Shown here one piece after another: positions 4,923 through 42,327 of a stretch of DNA of 64,000 nucleotides. Both the position numbers and the translations under genes were made by a program. Under the pieces are notes generated by a model that saw only the letters and a list, made by a program, of their open reading frames with translations, had not been told where the DNA came from and did not search any database. This DNA comes from Deltaproteobacteria bacterium (lineage in GTDB: Bacteria; Desulfobacterota; Syntrophobacteria; BM002). How positions within the stretch are numbered: position 1 is the first letter of the stretch; the number at the start of each line of letters is the position of its first letter. The stretch is from positions 5,297 to 69,296 of the forward strand of contig JARRNM010000024.1 of NCBI GenBank assembly GCA_037384945.1. Direction: 5' to 3'.

Positions 4923-5334
4923 CACACAGAGCACAAAGGTCACAAAGGATAAACGATAGAGATCGTTAAAGTCGTTAAAGTCGTTGAAGTCGTTAAAGTC
5001 GTTGAAGTCGTTGAAGTCGTTGAAGTCGTTGAAGTCGTAAACGGTAAACGGTAAACCGTTGAAACTATTCCTTTCTCAGGTCTAAACTTTGAACTTGGAA
5101 CTTTGAACTTGGAACTTGAATCCTCCGACCTCCGACCTCTGACCTCCGACCTCTGACCTCCGTCCTCTGTCCTCCCGCGTCTGTCCTCTGTCCTCTCACC
5201 TCGTCTCGCTCGACATCCCGTCTCGTCTTACTCCATGCTCTATGCCCTATGCCTATGTCACAACGGACCACGGACCACGGACAACTGACACTCAACGGTT
5301 TCTACGATTTCAACGATTTCAACGGCTGTATCGT
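4923..5334. repeat. intergenic word-chain repeat region between E2 and lpdA
   Basis: About ten different tandem word modules in series (see finding 1). Confidence 0.95.
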
Positions 5335-27896: not shown

Positions 27897-28365
27897 GTAG
27901 GGCGGGCGACCCTGCCCGCCATCTGAGTAAACCACAGAGCACACGGAGAACACAGAGAAAAGACAAAAGATTACATTGATATCTTTGTGAACTTTGTGCC
28001 CTTTGTGGTTCTCTCTCTGCTGGCACGTAGCGGCAGGCACGGTGGCCTGCCCTACGAGTCACCGGTCACTTTGTGACCTTCGTGGTTTTTGGTACCGGTT
28101 GTCTGCCAGCTACCCGCCGCAATCCTTTTGAGCAATGAAGCGACTCCTTGTCTTGAACTTCCTTGCTCCCGGCCCCATTAGCTGCTGGCCCCAGCGGATG
28201 GGGCTTTTTTTGTAGGGGCAGGCATGTTGGCCTGCCCTATCTCAGAGGCCAGAAGTCGGATGTCGGAGATCAGTCTGACCTCTAATCTTTGCCTGCTGCC
28301 CGCTGCCCGCTGTTTTTCGTGGTTGACAGGAAACAGAAACCTCTTGCCCACTGCCATACCGATCA
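27897..28365. repeat. intergenic word-chain / hairpin repeat region
   Basis: GTAGGGCGGGCGACCCTGCCCGCC, CACAGAG/CACGGAG words, inverted CACAAAG words, GTAGCGGCAGGCACGGTGGCCTGCCCTAC, GTCGGA words and CTGCCCGCTG words. Confidence 0.85.
28188..28211 (+). terminator. Rho-independent terminator-like hairpin
   Basis: GCCCCA-GCGGA-TGGGGC stem-loop followed directly by T7. Confidence 0.6.
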
Positions 28366-28479: not shown

Positions 28480-30918
28480 ATGCCGGCCAAAAAGGACAAA
28501 AAGAAGACAGAGACAGAAGTTCCAAATCAAACAAAGAAAGGCAAGAGCGAGGCAAAAAGGCAAAAGGATAAAAATCCCTCCGAACCCGCTGCCCCCATTC
28601 AGTACACTGAAAAAGTTTTTCCCATTGTGGGCATAGGTGCATCTGCCGGGGGGCTGAAAGCCCTGGAGAAGTTCTTTGACCACATGCCGCCGCAGGAAAA
28701 CATCTCTTTTGTGGTCGTGCAACACCTGGATCCGAAACATGAAAGCCTGATGCCCGGGCTGCTGGAAAAGCACACTGAGATGAAGATCTCGACTGCGAAC
28801 AGCGGGCAAAAGATCGAACCCAATCACCTCTACATAAGACCGCCGGGCAGGGACGTGGTTGTCAAAAACCGCACCCTTTATCTGCAGGAGCCCAGCGAGG
28901 GGAGAGGGATCCAGCTGACAATCGATATCTTCTTTCGCTCTCTGGCCGAAGACCTCGGTGAACTGGCCATCTGCATCATCCTGTCGGGCGCCGGCAGCGA
29001 CGGGACCCTGGGTCTCAAATCCATCAAGGGAGAAGGCGGCATGGCGATGGTACAGGAGGAAAAACAGGCGGAATACAATGGAATGCCCCTTAGCGCCATC
29101 AACACCGGCCTGGTAGATTACATACTTCCGGTGGAGAAAATGCCCGGGCAACTCATTACCTACATTCGGCATCTCTCCGAGGTACCTGAAAGGATCGGGT
29201 CCGATGAGGAGAAAACCGAGCAAAGTGTCAACCGAATCCTGACCTCCGTGCGGTTGGCTACCGGACACGATTTCAAGAATTATAAGAGAGGCACCATCCA
29301 CCGGCGGGTTGCGCGGCGCATGGCGGTGCAGCAGATCGGTGAAATCAGTCATTACGCCCAGTACCTGCGGCAAAACCCGGCTGAAATACACGAGCTCTTC
29401 AAAGACCTCCTTATTAATGTGACCAACTTTTTCCGGGATCCTGCAGCCTTCGAGGTTCTGGAGAGAGAAGCACTACCCGAGCTGCTCGAACAAAAGGAAA
29501 AAAAGGAAGAGGAACCCGGCACCCCCCTGCGTATCTGGGTCCCGGGATGCGGCACGGGTGAAGAGGCTTACTCCCTGGCCATGCTCCTGGTCGAGGCCAT
29601 GGAAAGGCAGGTCGACCGGCAGATACGGGAGATGGTTGTCTTTGCCGTGCACGATCTTACCAGGGACCCGCCTTTCTCCCGCCTCGACCTGGTAAGCTGC
29701 AGAAACGTGCTGATCTACATGAATACACCTTTGCAAAAGAAAATAATTCCCCTCTTTCACTATGCTCTCCGGGAAGGTGGTATTCTCTTTCTGGGCTCCT
29801 CAGAAGGAGTTGGAGAGTACACTCAATTATTCGAATTAATAGACCAAAAGCACAGAATTTATCGCAACAAAAAGACGGAGGACCAACACGCTCTCCTTGA
29901 ACAGCTGATCGGTCGAGCCGGCCCGGAGCTCGGCGAGCCGGCAAGAGGTGCAAGAGGGCAGCCAGCCCGAGACGCCAGACAGTCGGAGCTTAATATCCGC
30001 AGGCTGGTAGAGCAGTCCATCATAAGAAAATACGCACCTCCTAGCGTGCTTGTAGACGGTAAATTTCAGATTCTCTACTTTCACGGCGACACCAGCAAAT
30101 ACCTCAAACCACCCCGGGGGGAGCCCAGCTTTGATCTATTGCGAATGGCCACCGAAGGCCTGCATTACACACTGGACAAAGCACTGCTTGAGGTAAAGAG
30201 AGGCAAGAAGCCCCTGACCCTGGAGAATTTGAAAATTCGCGACAACCTTGCATTTTTGACCGTGGACATAGTCTTGACGCCTCTGTTCGAGACCAGGGGC
30301 GGATCCGATCTGATCCTGATTAGCTTCGAAGACAAAACACCTCCGCACGAGATAAGAAGCGAAGAAGACCGAGCAGCAAAAGCAGAGGACTTCGACTCAC
30401 GCTTAACTACAATGCAGAACGAACTTGACGCCACCAGGCAGAAGCTGCAAGCTACCATTGAAGGGCTGCAATCCACCAACGAAGAGCTGGAAACGGTGAA
30501 CGAAGAGTTCCAGCGGAAGAACCTCGAGCTGATAAGGGCCGAAGACGACATGCGCAATCTCTTTCATGCCACTGGAATTGCCACCATTTACCTGAACGAT
30601 GAGCTGCAGATCGTGCGGTTTACTCAGGCTGCAACCACAATATTCAACCTGCGTGAGCAGGATGTGGGCCGCCCTGTTTCCGATATCACCGGCCAGTTCG
30701 ACGCCGGTATCTTGTCCGAAGCGGCAAAGAACGTACTGAAATCCCTGGAAAAGAAAGAATGGGATGTGCCCGGCCAGGACGATCGCTGCTTCTCCGTCCG
30801 CATGCTCCCTTACCGGACAACAGACAACGTCATCGCCGGCGTGGTGATAACCATCATGGAGGTGACCGAAGCCAGAAAGGTGGAGCAGCGGGCGGAAAAG
30901 GCCAAAGCATCCTTCTGA
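28480..30918 (+). CDS. CheB-type methylesterase / CheR-type methyltransferase / coiled-coil / PAS fusion protein
   Basis: CheB-like FPIVGIGASAGGLKAL ... SGAGSDGT. CheR N-domain plus FFRDPAAF and VPGCGTGEEAYSLAMLL. A C-terminal PAS. The SAM-binding domain looks internally shortened. Confidence 0.85.
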   Translation: MPAKKDKKKTETEVPNQTKKGKSEAKRQKDKNPSEPAAPIQYTEKVFPIVGIGASAGGLKALEKFFDHMPPQENISFVVVQHLDPKHESLMPGLLEKHTEMKISTANSGQKIEPNHLYIRPPGRDVVVKNRTLYLQEPSEGRGIQLTIDIFFRSLAEDLGELAICIILSGAGSDGTLGLKSIKGEGGMAMVQEEKQAEYNGMPLSAINTGLVDYILPVEKMPGQLITYIRHLSEVPERIGSDEEKTEQSVNRILTSVRLATGHDFKNYKRGTIHRRVARRMAVQQIGEISHYAQYLRQNPAEIHELFKDLLINVTNFFRDPAAFEVLEREALPELLEQKEKKEEEPGTPLRIWVPGCGTGEEAYSLAMLLVEAMERQVDRQIREMVVFAVHDLTRDPPFSRLDLVSCRNVLIYMNTPLQKKIIPLFHYALREGGILFLGSSEGVGEYTQLFELIDQKHRIYRNKKTEDQHALLEQLIGRAGPELGEPARGARGQPARDARQSELNIRRLVEQSIIRKYAPPSVLVDGKFQILYFHGDTSKYLKPPRGEPSFDLLRMATEGLHYTLDKALLEVKRGKKPLTLENLKIRDNLAFLTVDIVLTPLFETRGGSDLILISFEDKTPPHEIRSEEDRAAKAEDFDSRLTTMQNELDATRQKLQATIEGLQSTNEELETVNEEFQRKNLELIRAEDDMRNLFHATGIATIYLNDELQIVRFTQAATTIFNLREQDVGRPVSDITGQFDAGILSEAAKNVLKSLEKKEWDVPGQDDRCFSVRMLPYRTTDNVIAGVVITIMEVTEARKVEQRAEKAKASF

Positions 30919-30929
30919 AGAAAAAGGAC

Positions 30930-31166
30930 ATGAAGAATGCAGAGCTTTACCAAGTGGGCAAGGGTGAATGGAACATCCCTGAACTGCGAAGCCTTTTGGA
31001 CAGAGTAGTCGAGTCCGGCAAAACCGTAAAAGGTTATAAATTGGAAGCCGAGTTCCCAGGTCTGGGACACAAGGTGCTGCTCCTTGACGCGAATCCCATA
31101 GAGGCAAAGGACGAGCGGCCCGAGATGATTCTGGTCATTATGAGGGAGATTAAGGAACAGGGGTAG
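30930..31166 (+). CDS. stand-alone PAS-like fragment (hypothetical)
   Basis: 78 aa. W.IPELRSLL...GYKLEAEFPGLGHKVLLLDANPI resembles the PAS module usually found at the C-terminal end of CheB/CheR fusions. It starts 12 nt after the upstream stop. Confidence 0.4.
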   Translation: MKNAELYQVGKGEWNIPELRSLLDRVVESGKTVKGYKLEAEFPGLGHKVLLLDANPIEAKDERPEMILVIMREIKEQG

Positions 31167-31479: not shown

Positions 31480-33594
31480 ATGTCTAAATTAGACAAAGAA
31501 AAATTTGTCGATCTTCGGGAAAGGGCGGAGCGGGTCCTGACCGAATCTCCTGGAGGGCTCCAAAAGATACCCACAGATGTGCAGGAGCTTATCCATGAGC
31601 TGCAAGTTAGAAGTGTCGAGCTGGAAATACAGAATGAACAGCTCAGGGAAACCCAGCTTGAGCTCCAGCAGTCGCATGACCGGTATGTCGAACTCTATGA
31701 CTTCGCCCCGGTTGGATATCTCACCATGGACAGCAATGGATTTATTGTCCAGGCCAACCTGGCTGTTTGCGCTTTGTTAAAAACACAAAGAAACGTATTG
31801 TTGACTCAGCCATTCAACGATTATGTGAAAGCTTCTCAGCGGAATGAATTTGAAAACCATCTCAGTCTGGTGAGCGCAACCTTGAGCAAACAAACCTGCG
31901 AACTCGAGCTAGTGGCCAGTAATCGCTCGGAGGTCGACGTTGAGATGCTAACGGTTCCCATTGACAGCCCGGATGATGACCATGCACTGTGGTACCGGGC
32001 AATCTTAACCGATATCGGTGAACGGAAGAGAAGGGATGAAGCCTTGCAACAGGCTTATGAAGAACTGGATCTGCGCGTGGAAGAGCGTACCAGAGAACTG
32101 GTGACGATGAATGAGCAGCTGAAAGGGGTCATAAGAAAGCGGGAGCAACTGGCACAGAACCTCCAGTTAGAAGTGGAAGAACGCAAGAAAATAGAGGGAG
32201 TCCTGCGAGAAAGCGAAGAACTTTTCCGGCGCACCTTTGATGAAGCGCCAATCGGTGCGGCGATTATTTCAACGGACTTTCGATTTAAAAGGGTCAACTC
32301 TGCATTGTGCTCCATCACGGGTTATTCTCAAGAAGAACTCGAGTCTCTCAGCTTTATGGATATCACTCATCCTGAGGATAGAGCGGATAGCGGATAACCT
32401 GAAAATGGCCCAAAAACTTGCCTCCGGTGAACTCCGCGATTATCAAGTGGAGAAGCGATACATACAAAAAGAAGGCAAAATTGTCTGGGTGCGTGCCTCC
32501 ATCGAAGTGATGCGAGATGAAGCAGGAGAGCCGATTTATTACCTGCCAATGACGGAGGACATCACAGAAAAGAAAAAGGTAGAGATTAAATTACGTGAAA
32601 GCGAGGAGAAGTACCGCCTGCTGATCCAGAATTTGCCGGGGGTTGTCTACAAGGGACAGAGAGATTGGTCGGTGGAATTCTTTGATGAAAAGGCTGAAAG
32701 GTTTACAGGGTACAAAGTGGAGGAATTTTGTTCCGGCCGGAAAAAATGGTCCGACCTGATCCTGGAAGAGGACTTCGACAGAGCCAAGGAACCACTCGTC
32801 AGGGCTCTTAGGACGGACAGATCCTTCCGGAAAAAATGGTCCGACCTGATCCCGGAAGAGGACTTCGACAGAGCCAAGGAACCATTCGTCAGGGCTCTTA
32901 GGACGGACAGATCCTTTGTCAGGGAATACCGAATAAGATGCAAGGATGGACAAATTTGTTGGGTGCAGGACCGGGGAACCATAGTGTGCGATGAAAAGGG
33001 AGAGATCCTTTCTGTGAACGGCGTTCCAAACTAAGGGTTGATTCAATGAGATATGGGGAAGTATCCAGCAAGATCTCTCCTGAGCTTGAGGCACTAAGTA
33101 GGAATCTCGAGGATGCCATAGAACAGACCCAATCTTTGATATTCAGGCTCAGCCCGCCGGTTCTTTACCAGGTTGGCTTGAGTGAGGCGCTGGAGTACCT
33201 GACCGAGTTGATGGAAACAAGTTATGGTATCCCCATCGCAGTAAGTTCTGAGTTAAACTCTCTGCTGCTGCCTGAAGATGAATCCGTCCTGCTCTTTCGA
33301 GCGGTGCAGGAACTGCTGATAAACATCGTCAAGCACGCTGGAGCCAGCAGATCCAGCGTAACTCTGAAAAGAAGTGATAATCAGGTGCAGGTTGAGGTTC
33401 AGGACGACGGGGTGGGTTTCGATACACGCCTATTATCAGCGCAAGGATCAGTGAAAAAGGGGTTTGGTCTGCTCAATATCCGGGAACGTTTGCACAATCT
33501 CGGTGGACATATGGAGGTTCAATCCTCACCTGGTGGCGGCACCAAGGTTAGCATCACAGCACCGTTGCCAACCGAGACTGGCAATACTCAATAA
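31480..33594 (+). pseudogene. multi-PAS NarL-type (HisKA_3) sensor histidine kinase with multiple lesions
   Basis: Three ORF pieces (31480-32397, 32237-33034, 33046-33594). There is a 7-bp tandem duplication frameshift, a 90-bp tandem duplication, and the H-box is missing ahead of an intact HATPase_c (GVGFD, GFGLLNIRERL). Confidence 0.8.
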
Positions 33595-33607: not shown

Positions 33608-34261
33608 GTGACAATTAAGATATTTATCGCAGACGATCACAGGATTTTGCGTGAGGGTTTGCGCTCCATGATCGAAATGATAAGCAAGATACAAGTGGTG
33701 GGCGAGGCGGGTAATGGCCGTGAAGCCGTGCGGCTGGCCACGGAGAGGAGGCCGGACGTGGTAATTATGGACGTAAACATGCCAGATTTGAACGGCATTG
33801 AAGCCACGCGGCTGCTGCTTAAAGAGCTGCCCGCTGTGAAAGTGATCGGGCTGTCCATGTACTCTGATAAGCGTTTTGTGGCAGGGATGCTCAAGGCCGG
33901 AGCTTCCGGATACCTGTTGAAGGCCGGCGCCTTTGAGGAACTTGCCACTGCCGTGCAGACCGTTATGGCGGGAGATATTTACCTGAGTCCGAGAGTCACA
34001 GGGGTCGTGATAGAGGATTATGTCGGCCATTTGACGCAAGAAAAATCAGCTCTGACCGAAACGTTGAGTCCAAGGGAGCGCGAGATCCTCCAACTGCTCG
34101 CTGAAGGTAAGTCAAGCAAGGATATTGCCTCTCTCCTGAACGTGAGCGAAAAGACAGTGCACACCCACCGGCAGCATATAATGGAAAAGTTGAATCTGCA
34201 CTCCATTGCCGAACTCACCAAGTATGCCATCAGAGAGGGGATCACCACGGCGGAAAACTAG
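33608..34261 (+). CDS. NarL/LuxR-family response regulator
   Basis: Receiver domain (IFIADDH ... VVIMDVNMPDLNG) plus a LuxR helix-turn-helix (LSPREREILQLLAEGKSSKDIA). GTG start at 33608. Confidence 0.9.
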   Translation: MTIKIFIADDHRILREGLRSMIEMISKIQVVGEAGNGREAVRLATERRPDVVIMDVNMPDLNGIEATRLLLKELPAVKVIGLSMYSDKRFVAGMLKAGASGYLLKAGAFEELATAVQTVMAGDIYLSPRVTGVVIEDYVGHLTQEKSALTETLSPREREILQLLAEGKSSKDIASLLNVSEKTVHTHRQHIMEKLNLHSIAELTKYAIREGITTAEN

Positions 34262-34770
34262 TCAGGTCAAGGCGACACGGTGACAGGGAGACACGGAGAC
34301 GCGGCGATTAGAGATCAGCTGGCAGATTCCAGCGTGCAGCTTGCAGGGCAGGCCACTGTGCCTGCCGCTACATGTCAGTTGTCCGTGGTCAGTGGTCCGT
34401 TGCCACAAAGCGATTATGAATCGTGTTTTTAGATTGAAACCACGCCGGGATGGCGGGGACAGTGCCCCGCCCTACGGCACAAATCCCAAATCCCAAGCAC
34501 CAAATCCCAAACAAATTCTAAATCACAATTCTCCAATGTTCAAAACAGTGTCGTAGAAACCGCAGAAGTCGTAGAAATCGTATAAGTCGTCAATTCAGCT
34601 CACAGGAAGCTTGTCATCTGATCTCTGACTTCCGACCTCCGACCTCTGATCCTCGTCTCGCCCGTCTCGCCCGACCTCCCGTCTCGCCTTACTCCATGCC
34701 CTATGCCCAGTCCCCCATCTCATTTAAAAATCAGCATTTCTGAACCGACAAATCAGACTCCCTCCTATTG
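34262..34770. repeat. intergenic word-chain repeat region
   Basis: GACACGG words, two GC hairpins, AAATCCCAAATCCCAAGCACCAAATCCCAAAC, GTCGTAGAAA words, CCGACCTC words, CGTCTCGCC words and TTACTCCATGCCCTATGCCC. Confidence 0.9.
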
Positions 34771-37328: not shown

Positions 37329-37399
37329 AAAGGGAAATAACTATAAACTATAGTAAGCCGTTCCAGTATTTACCCTGTTACTTGCATCATCAGAGGACA

Positions 37400-37600
37400 G
37401 GGTGAAAATCCCGAAGTCCAAATTTCAAATTACAAACAAATTCAAAATTTCAATTCTTCGATTTTCAAAATATTCATACTTGCATTCAATATTGGTTTTG
37501 AATTTTGCATTTAGGTAATTGAAATTTGTGTGGGATTTGGTGCTTGGGAATTGGGATTCATGCCGACTAGGGTAGGCCACCGCTCCTGCCGTGAGCCGAC
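37400..37600. repeat. intergenic word-chain repeat region
   Basis: AAATTTCAAAT/AATTCAAAA words in inverted arrangement, the reverse complement of the CCCAAATCCCAAGCACC module, and a degenerate GC hairpin. Confidence 0.8.
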
Positions 37601-37639
37601 CTGAGACGATCTACCCAGAATGAACCCTTAGGGGAAGAA

Positions 37640-38248
37640 ATGAAATTAACCACCCAGGGGAATTCGCGAGTCTATCAGTTCAAGATAGTGCTGGATGGAA
37701 TTAAGCCTTTGATATGGAGACGAATACAGGTCCCGGGAAAATACTCATTCTGGGACCTGCACGTGGCCGTCCAAGATGCAATGGGTTGGCAGGACTATCA
37801 CCTCCATAGATTCGAAATCCCTGACCCGCTGTCGGGAGTGAGAACAACCATAGTGAGCTTTCCGACTGAGGCGTCCAAAGGGAACAGTAAATTTTTATCA
37901 GGATGGAAGGTTAAGATGGGCCATTATTTTACCATGGCAAACAATAAGGCGTGGTACGCCTATGACTATCTCTACGACAATTGGAATCACAGATTAACCC
38001 TAGAAGGGATATTCCCGAGAGAAGAGGGGACCGGGTATCCCCTTTGCCTGGACGGCAGGCGAGCCTCCCCTCCGGAAGACTGTGGCGGGGTGCAAGGGTA
38101 TTACAGGCTTCTAGGAAACATCAACAGACAAGATCAAAAGCACAAATCAAGATTGGCCGGCGGAGCCTACGACCCGGAAGCGTTAAACATTGATGAAATC
38201 TACTTTGACAACCCCGCAAGGCGGCTAGATCTCTCCTTCAATAGATAG
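37640..38248 (+). CDS. pRiA4b ORF-3-like family protein
   Basis: YQFKIVLDGIKPLIWRRIQVPGKYSFWDLHVAVQDAMGWQDYHLHRFEI is the hallmark N-terminal signature of this family. Confidence 0.8.
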   Translation: MKLTTQGNSRVYQFKIVLDGIKPLIWRRIQVPGKYSFWDLHVAVQDAMGWQDYHLHRFEIPDPLSGVRTTIVSFPTEASKGNSKFLSGWKVKMGHYFTMANNKAWYAYDYLYDNWNHRLTLEGIFPREEGTGYPLCLDGRRASPPEDCGGVQGYYRLLGNINRQDQKHKSRLAGGAYDPEALNIDEIYFDNPARRLDLSFNR

Positions 38249-38305
38249 AATACAGTTAATGGAGGATAAACTTCCAACTCTCAAGGCAGAATGGTTCAAA
38301 GGAGC

Positions 38306-38342
38306 CTAACTTACTTAACTTACTTAAATTACTTAACTTACC
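38306..38342. repeat. short tandem word repeat
   Basis: AACTTACTTAACTTACTTAAATTACTTAACTTACC. Confidence 0.8.
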
Positions 38343-38392
38343 CCTTGCCCCCGCAGTCAGTCCTGGGGGGTAGGGGAAACCAGCCGACACGC

Positions 38393-39631
38393 TCAATCAA
38401 GGCGCATCTGTGTTTTGTCATCCTCCTGGATTACCTTTGCGACTGCCTTTGTCTTTTCAGAGATCAACTCCCATTCAGCTTTTAACCGCCGCAGCAAATT
38501 GTTCCACCGGACGAGTTCGTCCTTTTTCGGGTCCGGCTTGTAGCCAAGAATCGATTGATAAAGGCGGACTAATCGGTCCGCAGAGGTTTGGCGGGAGAAA
38601 CGATCTGCTGTCTTCAAAGCCTCCTTTTGCCACTCTTTTGCCCGGGTCGCATCTTGGGTGAAACAGTGAAGAGCTTGGGCAAAGGATTGCGGGGAGGCGG
38701 TTTCTGCAAGCAAGCGTCCATTTTTCCCGTCTTGCACAACCTCCCGCGCTCCTGAGGCATCGAGAGCGATTACCGGTGTGCCGGCAGCCATGGCTTCCGT
38801 CAGGACCATCCCCTGGGTTTCAGACTTGGAGCTGAAGACGAAGAGGTCCATGGCCCTGTACACATCAGCCAGGTCTTGGCCGGTGACTATTCCCAACATA
38901 AGTAACTGCTCACTCAGGGATCTATCGGCGAAGATCCTTTGAATTTCCTTCTTGCTGGGGCCGCTGCCAGCCACGACGAAGAAAGCTTTGCGATTGCTCT
39001 CCAGGAATAGAGCTACCGATTCTGCCAGATATCTGAGGTTTTTTTCCGGTGCCAACCGCCCCAGATGGCCGATGACCAGGGCATCCTGGGGGATCCCGTG
39101 GGTTTGACGGATTTTCTCTCCCCGGCCTTTATTGAAAAACTGGATGTCTACCCCCGTGGGAATCTCTTCAATGACAGTTTCAACCCCTCGTTTACGAAGC
39201 AAACTGGCAACACTGAGGCTAGGTGCCACCACTCTGGTGCAATGATTGGCATACTCGGTGGAGAGTTGAATTACGAAGCGTCGCAGGGTTTCGGAATCCA
39301 AAGGAACGTAATGGGTATATTTTTCGTACAGGGTGTGATGGGTGAAGACCAGTGGCATGTCATGTGTCCGGGACGACCGGATGGCTGCATCTCAAATCAA
39401 ATAGGGATGGTGGCTGTGAATTACGTCCGGTGCGAACTGGTCTATTTTGTCATGGATTACAAATGGATGAGGAATGCGGAGTCCTATGGAGTCGATTTCC
39501 TCATGAAAAGTGGGAGCAATAACCAGAACCCTGTGACCTAGGCGGCACAGATCTTCCGCAAAGGTCGCAACCGAGCGCGCCACCCCACCCACGTGGGGAA
39601 GATAAGTATTGGTGAACATGCAGATATTCAT
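38393..39631 (-). pseudogene. GT4-family glycosyltransferase interrupted by an in-frame TGA
   Basis: ORFs 39392..39631 and 38393..39358 are in the same frame. The read-through gives HSHHPYLI*DAAIRSSRTHDMPLVFTHHT, continuous with GT4 N-domain consensus. Confidence 0.8.
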
Positions 39632-39864: not shown

Positions 39865-42127
39865 CTACAACGGTTGCAGCGGATAGGATCCGCTAGTACC
39901 CGTAATCGTTTGCGCTTGGTACCCCGGCACCTTGATCTCCACCTCCGGTGATTCATCATACCAGGAGACCTCCAGCTGCAGCTCCGGTATATCTCCCTCC
40001 AGGCGCAGAGTTACACTCACCCGACCGTAGGGTGTGAGGGTCGGTCCAAACCGGAGTTGTTCTGCCGATTCCAACCATTCGGGAAAAACTCCAGATGCCA
40101 ATATGAGCCTGTCTGCCTCCTCGCGGACGAAGAGGTTGCGCATCATCATCACCCACTCCGCAGCGGCCCAGCCGTGCTGCCCGTCACCCATACAGCCTCC
40201 TCCGGTGATGGGGTGGATCGCCTCCGGCCACTGGCCGGTTGACGATGCCAGTGCCGCGACGCTCTCTATCAGTCTTTTGTAGCGAGAGTCGTTGCATCTG
40301 AGCAGCGATTGGGCGATGGACAAAGTCAGATATGGATTGATCCCCGAATGGATCATGTCCTGGAAGAAGCCACCGGAGTGGAAACACTGCTCCATGAGAA
40401 AATCGATGGTGTTTATAATTCTCGCCTCATCAGGCTTGGTAAGCTGCAGGGGGTAATCTGCTACCAGCGAACCGACGGCAGCAGCGTCCAAGCGGCGGTT
40501 TGGTGATGCGGGGATGCCTCCACGGCTTCTTGGTTGTGGAATCGCCTGAATGCTGGCAAACAGAGTATTTTCGAAATCGGAGGCAAGAGCTTCTATTTCT
40601 TCTTTCTTTGCTGATGAATGGAATATGCCGGCAAGGCGAGCAGCGCCTCTGAGACCGGCAATAGCCCAGAAATCATCCCAGTAGTAGTAATCGTTGGGGC
40701 CAAAGTGTTCAGCGCTGAAACCAGCAGGGAGAAGACCAGGGTGCTGCGCACTTTTTTCCCTGGGAACCCTTTTCTTCCTGATCCAATTTACCCCCTTGAG
40801 AAGGGCTTTCATCCAGCCGTCATCGAGGTTGCGCCTGCTCAGTCGCTGAAATCTGTCAAAGATCCACAGCACCTGTCCGTTTGAATCCCACTCGCCTTTC
40901 TGGGACTGAAAATAGCCGGAACGCTTTTGTCTGGAGAGAAAGCCGGTCAGCAAGCGGTGGCATCTCTCGGTTAATCCTAGTGCCAGGAGCCCATTGATCA
41001 TAAGGCAACCGTCCCGAAACCAGAAACGTTTATAGGTGTAAGGACCGGGAACCGGGTCAGCGGCCGAGAGGAGTACCAGGGTGCTCACCGCTGCCTCAAA
41101 GAGGAATTGCATCTTGGCATCCGGTATATTCAAGGTCGCGGTTTCGGCCAGACAGCCCGCCCAGGTCTGTCGCGGTCCGCGAATAGTTTCGCTTTTTGGT
41201 TGAATCTCCGGGCTCAGGGGTATGCTGATTTCGATCTTTTTATCATGGTTGTCGGTCAAGGGAAAAAGAGCGGCAGCGGTGGCCATGCCCACGGCACAAT
41301 CGACTTGCAGGTCTGATTCAGACTGGTACAGCTTGTGGATAACGTCGCCTTCGTCATAGTTGGAGAATAACATGCGCTCGGGACGCTCGCTCATCTTTAA
41401 CAACCTTTCTTTATTTACCAGCAATCCGGGGTGTTGTTCCACAAAGGCAATCTCCTCGATAAATTGAATCCCTTCCGGATTGTAAGGGCGGATTGAAACG
41501 GCGAGCCATCCCTCATCCTGCGACCTGCCCGTGATCTTTAGGGTCAGGTGCGGGGTGAGCCCTGAAAATTCGACTGCTGCAGCAGACTCCAGTTTCTGGT
41601 TATGCAGGTGACAGAGGGTTCTAACCAGAAGATTTGGTGATAATTCCAGCTGCTGCTCCACCTCCGGTAGTCGAGAGGGAAACAACCTTTTCCCATTGTT
41701 GGAGATAATCCAGAAGTCAAGGGACCAGCCGTCATAGAAAGGCGTAACTAACCCACGGGGATCGACAATTGGGTAGACAGGCAAGTCAGGCTGGCCAACG
41801 GCAGTCCAATTTCGGTGCGTCAGGTTAACGCAGGTTAACGTGACTAAAAGAAAAAGCCCTGGGAATAAAGGAGGGGTCGAAGGGATTGAACTGTTTTTCC
41901 ACCCAGTAAGGCCATAACCAATCGAGGTTGTTCTGTATTGCCTTGGTATTGATCAGCCCTCGGGCGTGAAAGATAATTCCGGCCCGCAATAATTCCATGG
42001 GCTCCTGCACCTCCGAAGGCTGGGCAAATCTACGCAATCGGGCCAGGAGAGAAACCGGGTCAATGACGCCGTAGGAACGGGCGGCCCGTTTGAGCAGAAA
42101 TTTCCATGGTATCCAGCGGGTGATCAT
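39865..42127 (-). pseudogene. GH15-like (alpha/alpha)6-barrel glycoside hydrolase split by a 10-bp tandem duplication
   Basis: ORFs 41825..42127 and 39865..41784. Removing one CAGGTTAACG copy restores ...FSHVNLTHRNWTAVGQPDLPVYPIVDPRG. The catalytic-domain-like sequence YKRFWFRDG is present. Confidence 0.8.
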
Positions 42128-42327
42128 AGTTCAAATCCGTTAGTCAAATCGTTGAAACCGTTCAAGTCGTAAAAGTCGTAGAAATCGTTCAAGTCGTAGA
42201 AATCGTAGAAATCGTCTATTTAGCTCACAGCTCACAGGGGCAAAACTGCCGAATAACGAATAACTAATAAGGGATAACGACACTGCGAGCTGCCAGTTGC
42301 CAGCAGCGAGCTGTCTTCCGTCGGCTG
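42128..42327. repeat. intergenic word-chain repeat region
   Basis: GAAACCGTTCAAGTCGTAAAAGTCGTAGAAATCGT (near-identical to nt 60-95), AGCTCACAG words, AATAACGAATAAC words, GCTGCCAG words and TGTCCTC. Confidence 0.9.

Follow-up and report, generated by a model that had tools for sequence, protein, structure and literature searches.

Does the tandem heptamer that interrupts a multi-PAS histidine kinase gene reflect an event in the bacterial population, whether a mutation, a genetic switch or a recoding site, or did it arise when the record was built? In the 64,000-nucleotide stretch of DNA analysed here (the window), AGCGGAT stands twice in tandem on the plus strand, at 32382-32388 and 32389-32395, in the context ...CATCCTGAGGATAG AGCGGAT AGCGGAT AACCTG..., and the two-copy sequence across the site is AGCGGATAGCGGAT. 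The first copy (32382..32388) supplies the third base of the Arg301 codon and then Ala302 and Asp303 of the intact protein. The second copy (32389..32395) follows codon Asp303, inside the second PAS domain (PAS2), and adds 7 bases; the shifted reading turns into ...DRADSG* and ends at the TAA of 32395..32397. The sequence-only reading had described a 7-bp tandem duplication at 32382-32395 that ends the open reading frame 31480-32397 of a multi-PAS histidine kinase, and whose single-copy removal joins this frame to ORF 32237-33034. These descriptions hold: both copies are present in the deposited sequence, the frame stops at that TAA, and the overlapping +1-frame ORF reaches 33034. With one copy removed, the translation continues as ...HPEDRADNLKMAQKLASGELRDYQVEKRYI... 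into the frame of ORF 32237-33034, and the resulting protein text is identical to that of the intact orthologue P0001 and agrees with P0002-P0010. The duplication is real in the deposited sequence and is private to this record.

The natural gene is predicted to be an intact 755-aa PAS-PAS-PAS-HisKA_3-HATPase_c sensor kinase that is paired with a NarL-type regulator, which bears out the assignment to the multi-PAS histidine kinases. Using the read-through protein as a query, searches of metagenomes returned intact orthologues, namely P0001 (755 aa; 89% across the broken query as a whole, and almost identical in the aligned parts), which contains PAS domains, HisKA_3 at residues 549-613 and HATPase_c at residues 654-748, and P0002-P0010 (721-733 aa, 64-85% identity). 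Across these orthologues, at 64-89% identity, the site is read straight through as DRAD or DRAE, or as a substituted ERQE, with no repeat. In the window, the protein is distributed over three fragments on the plus strand: the first (31480..32397, 305 aa) contains the N-terminal coiled coil, PAS1 and the first half of PAS2; the second (32396..33034), in the +1 frame, is the truly coding part of ORF 32237-33034 and contains the rest of PAS2 and then PAS3; and the third (33046..33594, 182 aa), in which the original frame is regained, contains the second helix of HisKA_3 and HATPase_c.

The return to frame 0 is set by another record-private lesion, a 160-bp deletion located 630 bp downstream of the duplication (junction at 33025..33026, plus strand), which starts in a T8 run of the intact allele and takes out P0001 residues 514-566, comprising the PAS-to-DHp linker and the HisKA_3 H-box with His557. 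A domain search found no HisKA_3 match in the kinase fragments of the window. A functional HisKA_3 kinase carries its phospho-accepting His and HATPase_c in one frame; the window copy does not, and HisKA_3 is present in P0001. Removal of one heptamer alone would therefore yield no working kinase, since the 160-bp deletion loses His557 and shifts the frame. PAS3 itself contains a 90-bp (30-aa) in-frame tandem duplication (32737..32916, plus strand), which is common to all three intact 755-aa JGI alleles, is not inactivating by frame and is missing in the orthologues at 64-85% identity; it accounts for the length of 755 aa in the JGI alleles versus 721-733 aa in the remoter orthologues and, judged by its distribution, is real and lineage-specific. 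Downstream of the kinase lies its cognate NarL/LuxR-type response regulator, with receiver and GerE domains, which is intact (33608..34261, plus strand); upstream lies a CheB-CheR-PAS_10-PAS gene (28480..31166, plus strand), which encodes 1013 aa when intact, as in contig L022, and has three lesions here.

Because the same-genus species representatives searched contain no close orthologue (best 41-48%), the reference was limited to metagenome contigs, namely three from JGI, each of a different sample (L022, which encodes P0001, L055 and L056), and one from ENA (L057). The JGI contigs match the window at 99.3-99.9% identity and share one 755-aa protein product, and L057 matches the window at 95%. 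In all four contigs the gene is open and has a single AGCGGAT copy; AGCGGAT x2 is counted as a lesion because they lack exactly the 7 added bases. The comparison with related sequences that had been proposed on the basis of the sequence alone has thus been run, and it gives one copy in the near-identical and related contigs and read-through in the orthologues.

Between 27.2 and 43.5 kb, the window differs from these contigs at eight sites besides the +7 duplication. Five of the eight are clean deletions, each lacking 50-160 bp and having 0-3 filler bases in their place. In the CheB-CheR gene, an in-frame 153-bp deletion (29611/29612, plus strand) removes 51 residues of the SAM-binding domain from CheR, and a 100-bp deletion replaced by TTC (30913-30915, plus strand) shifts the frame and splits the 1013-aa CheB-CheR-PAS gene. 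The 160-bp deletion in the kinase is followed by a record-private 50-bp intergenic deletion (junction at 37390..37391) and by the loss of 61 bp from a GT4 glycosyltransferase gene (39358..39482, minus strand), with a T at 39482 in their place. The remaining three differences are the loss of five 21-bp repeat units (105 bp; 30460-30489, plus strand) from the 21-bp-periodic coiled-coil repeat of the CheB-CheR gene; an intergenic spacer at 28216-28339 that is wholly replaced with respect to L022 (124 bp versus 234 bp); and an exact 10-bp tandem duplication, CAGGTTAACG x2 (41821..41840, minus strand), which shifts the frame of a 750-aa gene and is missing in L055. This second private exact duplication is located 9.4 kb from the AGCGGAT duplication. 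A common start of the deletions at long homopolymers was considered and rejected, as it is true for the 160-bp deletion (T8) and not for the others. Separately, the pRiA4_ORF3-like gene at 37391-38488 of the window is 92% identical to L022 and 99.7% identical to L055; the population alleles are mosaic.

Substitutions were compared across the same contigs. Between L056 and L022, 5.2 kb of sequence shows 28 substitutions and 0 gaps; the window, set against these contigs, has fewer substitutions, yet eight indels. Unshared substitutions cluster beside the junctions, at 30888-30889 (24 bp from the 100-bp deletion) and at 32951 (74 bp from the 160-bp deletion). A further six, all transversions, fall at 39358-39458 to the left of the 61-bp deletion, a region in which the comparison is with L055 alone; these mismatches (three G>T, two C>A and one A>T) are 24-124 bp from the deletion, and one of them makes an in-frame TGA at 39392-39394. 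The 350 bp on either side of the AGCGGAT duplication are free of private substitutions and of Ns. To the left of the duplication the window has the haplotype of L055 at 6/6 informative sites, and to the right it has that of L056 at 5/5; the duplication lies inside the 650-bp interval in which the switch occurs.

In a collection of ~15 billion proteins, the truncated 305-aa product stands alone in a singleton cluster, whereas the intact 755-aa form is found in three assemblies. Exact look-ups of the 305-aa and 182-aa fragments returned no other contig, and a homology search with a 363-aa piece across both lesions returned nothing closer than 67%. A scan with P0001 of metagenome and genome contig collections, with records near the window genome outside its scope, returned only distant paralogues (25-45%). 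Overall, fragment look-ups, protein clusters and comparison contigs, which may not extend to records very near the window genome, revealed no second independent assembly carrying the duplication.

By itself, AGCGGAT x2 is statistically unremarkable. A first-order Markov model predicts ~3.3 +/- 1.7 exact 7-mer x2 repeats per 64 kb window; 31 are observed, nearly all of them in intergenic heptamer arrays. Across the draft genome (G000), there are 1496 heptamer tandems versus 216 expected. The genome-wide spectrum of exact x2 duplications has peaks at 7, 9, 8 and 14 bp, which are real intergenic arrays, and a modest excess at 10-12 bp (10, 9 and 5 observed versus 3.4, 0.8 and 0.2 expected); a uniform overlap-join artefact would predict a flat excess at all lengths. 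Removing one copy restores a long frame in 0.34% of cases genome-wide, versus 0.30% for random 7-bp deletions. AGCGGAT is not among the genome's heptamer words, and this is its sole tandem occurrence in 4.7 Mb. The intergenic spacers of G000 are rich in 7-, 8- and 9-bp tandem arrays, in the window at 4963-5324, 34274-34688 and 42146-42313 and at other sites, and the heptamer arrays are drawn from a few words, AAACCTG, AGGGCAT and AGAGCAT among them.

The quality of the whole record bears on how its private indels are to be read. G000 is a draft MAG: its sequence is spread over 325 contigs, its completeness is estimated at 83%, and its 62 N-runs, each 1-131 bases long, imply that it was scaffolded. 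Measured against ~460 kb of a complete genome from the same genus, ~6 out of 150 conserved genes of G000 have clean internal deletions, with or without a change of frame and without Ns, including class II fructose-bisphosphate aldolase, an M48 peptidase and an oxoprolinase-type gene; the reverse comparison yields only ~1-2 frame-changing lesions in the relative. In particular, rpoC (C117:9003-12952, outside the window) is split at C117:9515 into two frames with a loss of ~10 residues or profile positions, and in six relatives it reads as one frame of 1373-1395 aa. A cell with this split rpoC could not live. The gene is decisive for the quality of the record: as judged from these comparisons, G000 contains consensus errors of the same deletion-plus-frameshift kind as seen around the kinase. 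With rpoC broken in frame and housekeeping genes broken as well, private indels in G000 cannot be assumed to be biological. In conserved genes their frequency is of the order of one per 20 kb; in this stretch it is about one per 2 kb. The remaining N-runs agree well with the true gap sizes in two of three tested cases, and therefore the plain abutting of contigs over mis-estimated gaps cannot account for everything. In the single-contig same-genus genome G002, the C-terminal 160 profile positions of rpoC are found at C1:2856936-2857415, adjoining rpsL-rpsG and 13.6 kb upstream of the rest, and the main gene (2870601-2874155) ends in a masked stretch; this layout is possibly a misassembly or a rearrangement in that record.

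Four kinds of explanation can be weighed against these observations. The sequence-only reading had raised phase variation, in which AGCGGAT would be a contingency repeat that toggles the kinase through the gain or loss of one unit. Its 7-bp length is not divisible by three, so that a change of one unit does toggle the frame, and the genome is rich in heptamers. However, a contingency locus has a multi-unit tract that varies between alleles in a gene that is otherwise intact, and here there are two copies versus one in all four other alleles, with neither a tract nor a copy-number series; the orthologues at 64-89% identity have no repeat at the site; the word is tandem nowhere else in the genome and is foreign to its heptamer vocabulary; and a single copy would restore no kinase next to the 160-bp deletion. 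The suggestion is not sustained: phase variation is highly improbable and, by this comparison of alleles, can be regarded as essentially excluded. Even less credence is given to a programmed ribosomal frameshift or other recoding site that still yields the full-length protein, as nothing beyond the two overlapping frames speaks for it, whereas the site has no slippery X XXY YYZ motif, intact relatives without the 7 bases encode the protein in one frame, and the downstream H-box is deleted. Both readings are rejected because there is no tract or copy-number series, no slippery site and no H-box.

The choice is then between a lesion of the DNA and a lesion of the record. Gene-corrupting local assembly errors have been described as a class in deposited MAGs, their defining criterion being a consensus that lacks even one supporting read (Chen, Anantharaman, Shaiber, Eren and Banfield, 2020, PMC7111523). 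The extra AGCGGAT is probably a local assembly or consensus error of this kind in the draft record, and not a mutation in the population; an assembly error is the outcome that the sequence-only reading had itself set against its finding. This assessment is based on the duplication being private and missing in independent assemblies of the same population, on the many other private indels nearby, and on lesions in the same record, including in genes unbreakable in a living cell, that no viable cell carries. The extra copy would have been created during the joining of pieces that had been built separately in a scaffolded, strain-mixed MAG, or during the closing of a gap; for example, two pieces overlapping by 7 bases may have been abutted. 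The switch of haplotype around the duplication hints at such a join of two separately assembled pieces, and both kinase lesions flank the 90-bp tandem repeat, which may be a difficult spot for short-read assembly. Against an error, an exact 7-bp tandem duplication is equally expected from replication slippage, G000 has a real excess of heptamer tandem repeats, and no low-quality signature is seen right beside the duplication. The rival reading is a real and very recent slipped-strand or tandem-duplication mutation in one clone whose CheB-CheR/kinase module is decaying; the kinase would then be an ordinary pseudogene that was hit twice independently, by the +7 bp and by the 160-bp deletion that takes away the H-box. 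The added unit copies the adjoining 7 bases exactly, further inactivating lesions are present in the kinase gene and in its neighbor, and the frame between the two lesions is stop-free and ~99.4% identical to the intact alleles, as in a very young pseudogene. Nevertheless, such a mutation is rather unlikely, though of appreciable weight, given that its allele is present in no other assembly, that indels in this record are far more frequent, relative to substitutions, than they are between natural strains, and that rpoC and housekeeping genes are broken in the same record. The earlier view of the site as a classic biological slippage or duplication lesion is accordingly not supported, since the copy is private and stands amid eight other differences in 16 kb. 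More specifically, the private lesions could all be real if one clone of this uncultured Syntrophobacteria-like population had undergone break repair of an unusual kind, whose scars are clean deletions (50-160 bp, 0-3 filler bases) and short templated duplications (7-10 bp); the AGCGGAT duplication would be one such scar, or a nascent coding heptamer repeat in a genome that builds its spacers from heptamer arrays. That scenario is improbable.

With an assembly or consensus error as the preferred explanation, the main value of the finding is as a data-quality flag: apparent pseudogenes, lost domains and truncated products from G000 should not be taken as biology without a check of the reads. 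The flag covers the kinase, the CheB-CheR fusion, the GT4 glycosyltransferase, the 750-aa gene, rpoC and the class II aldolase. A real duplication would still amount to no more than an ordinary second hit in a sensor gene that is non-essential and already dead; indeed, the finding is ordinary whether it is read as an error, a real mutation, phase variation or recoding, and its practical value lies in the warning about the record.

Compared with known systems, the intact allele resembles the NarX/NarL-class (HisKA_3) kinases with PAS input, having three PAS domains, HisKA_3, HATPase_c and an adjoining receiver-GerE regulator, whereas the window copy differs in that its H-box is missing and it is spread over three frames. 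As at the contingency loci of Haemophilus, Neisseria and Campylobacter, the repeat unit is in a coding region and has a length that is not a multiple of three; unlike them, the site has no tract and no copy-number series, and the gene is independently dead. The locus shares with slippage frameshift pseudogenes an exact adjacent 7-mer copy, a +1 shift, a premature stop and a frame that is restored by the removal of one unit, but its allele is in no independent assembly and its record holds indels that cannot be real. The local assembly errors of MAGs (PMC7111523) are described as a general type and not for short exact tandem duplications specifically; in common with them, this record shows a private consensus, corrupted coding genes, a scaffolded MAG of short contigs, and many affected sites that include essential genes.
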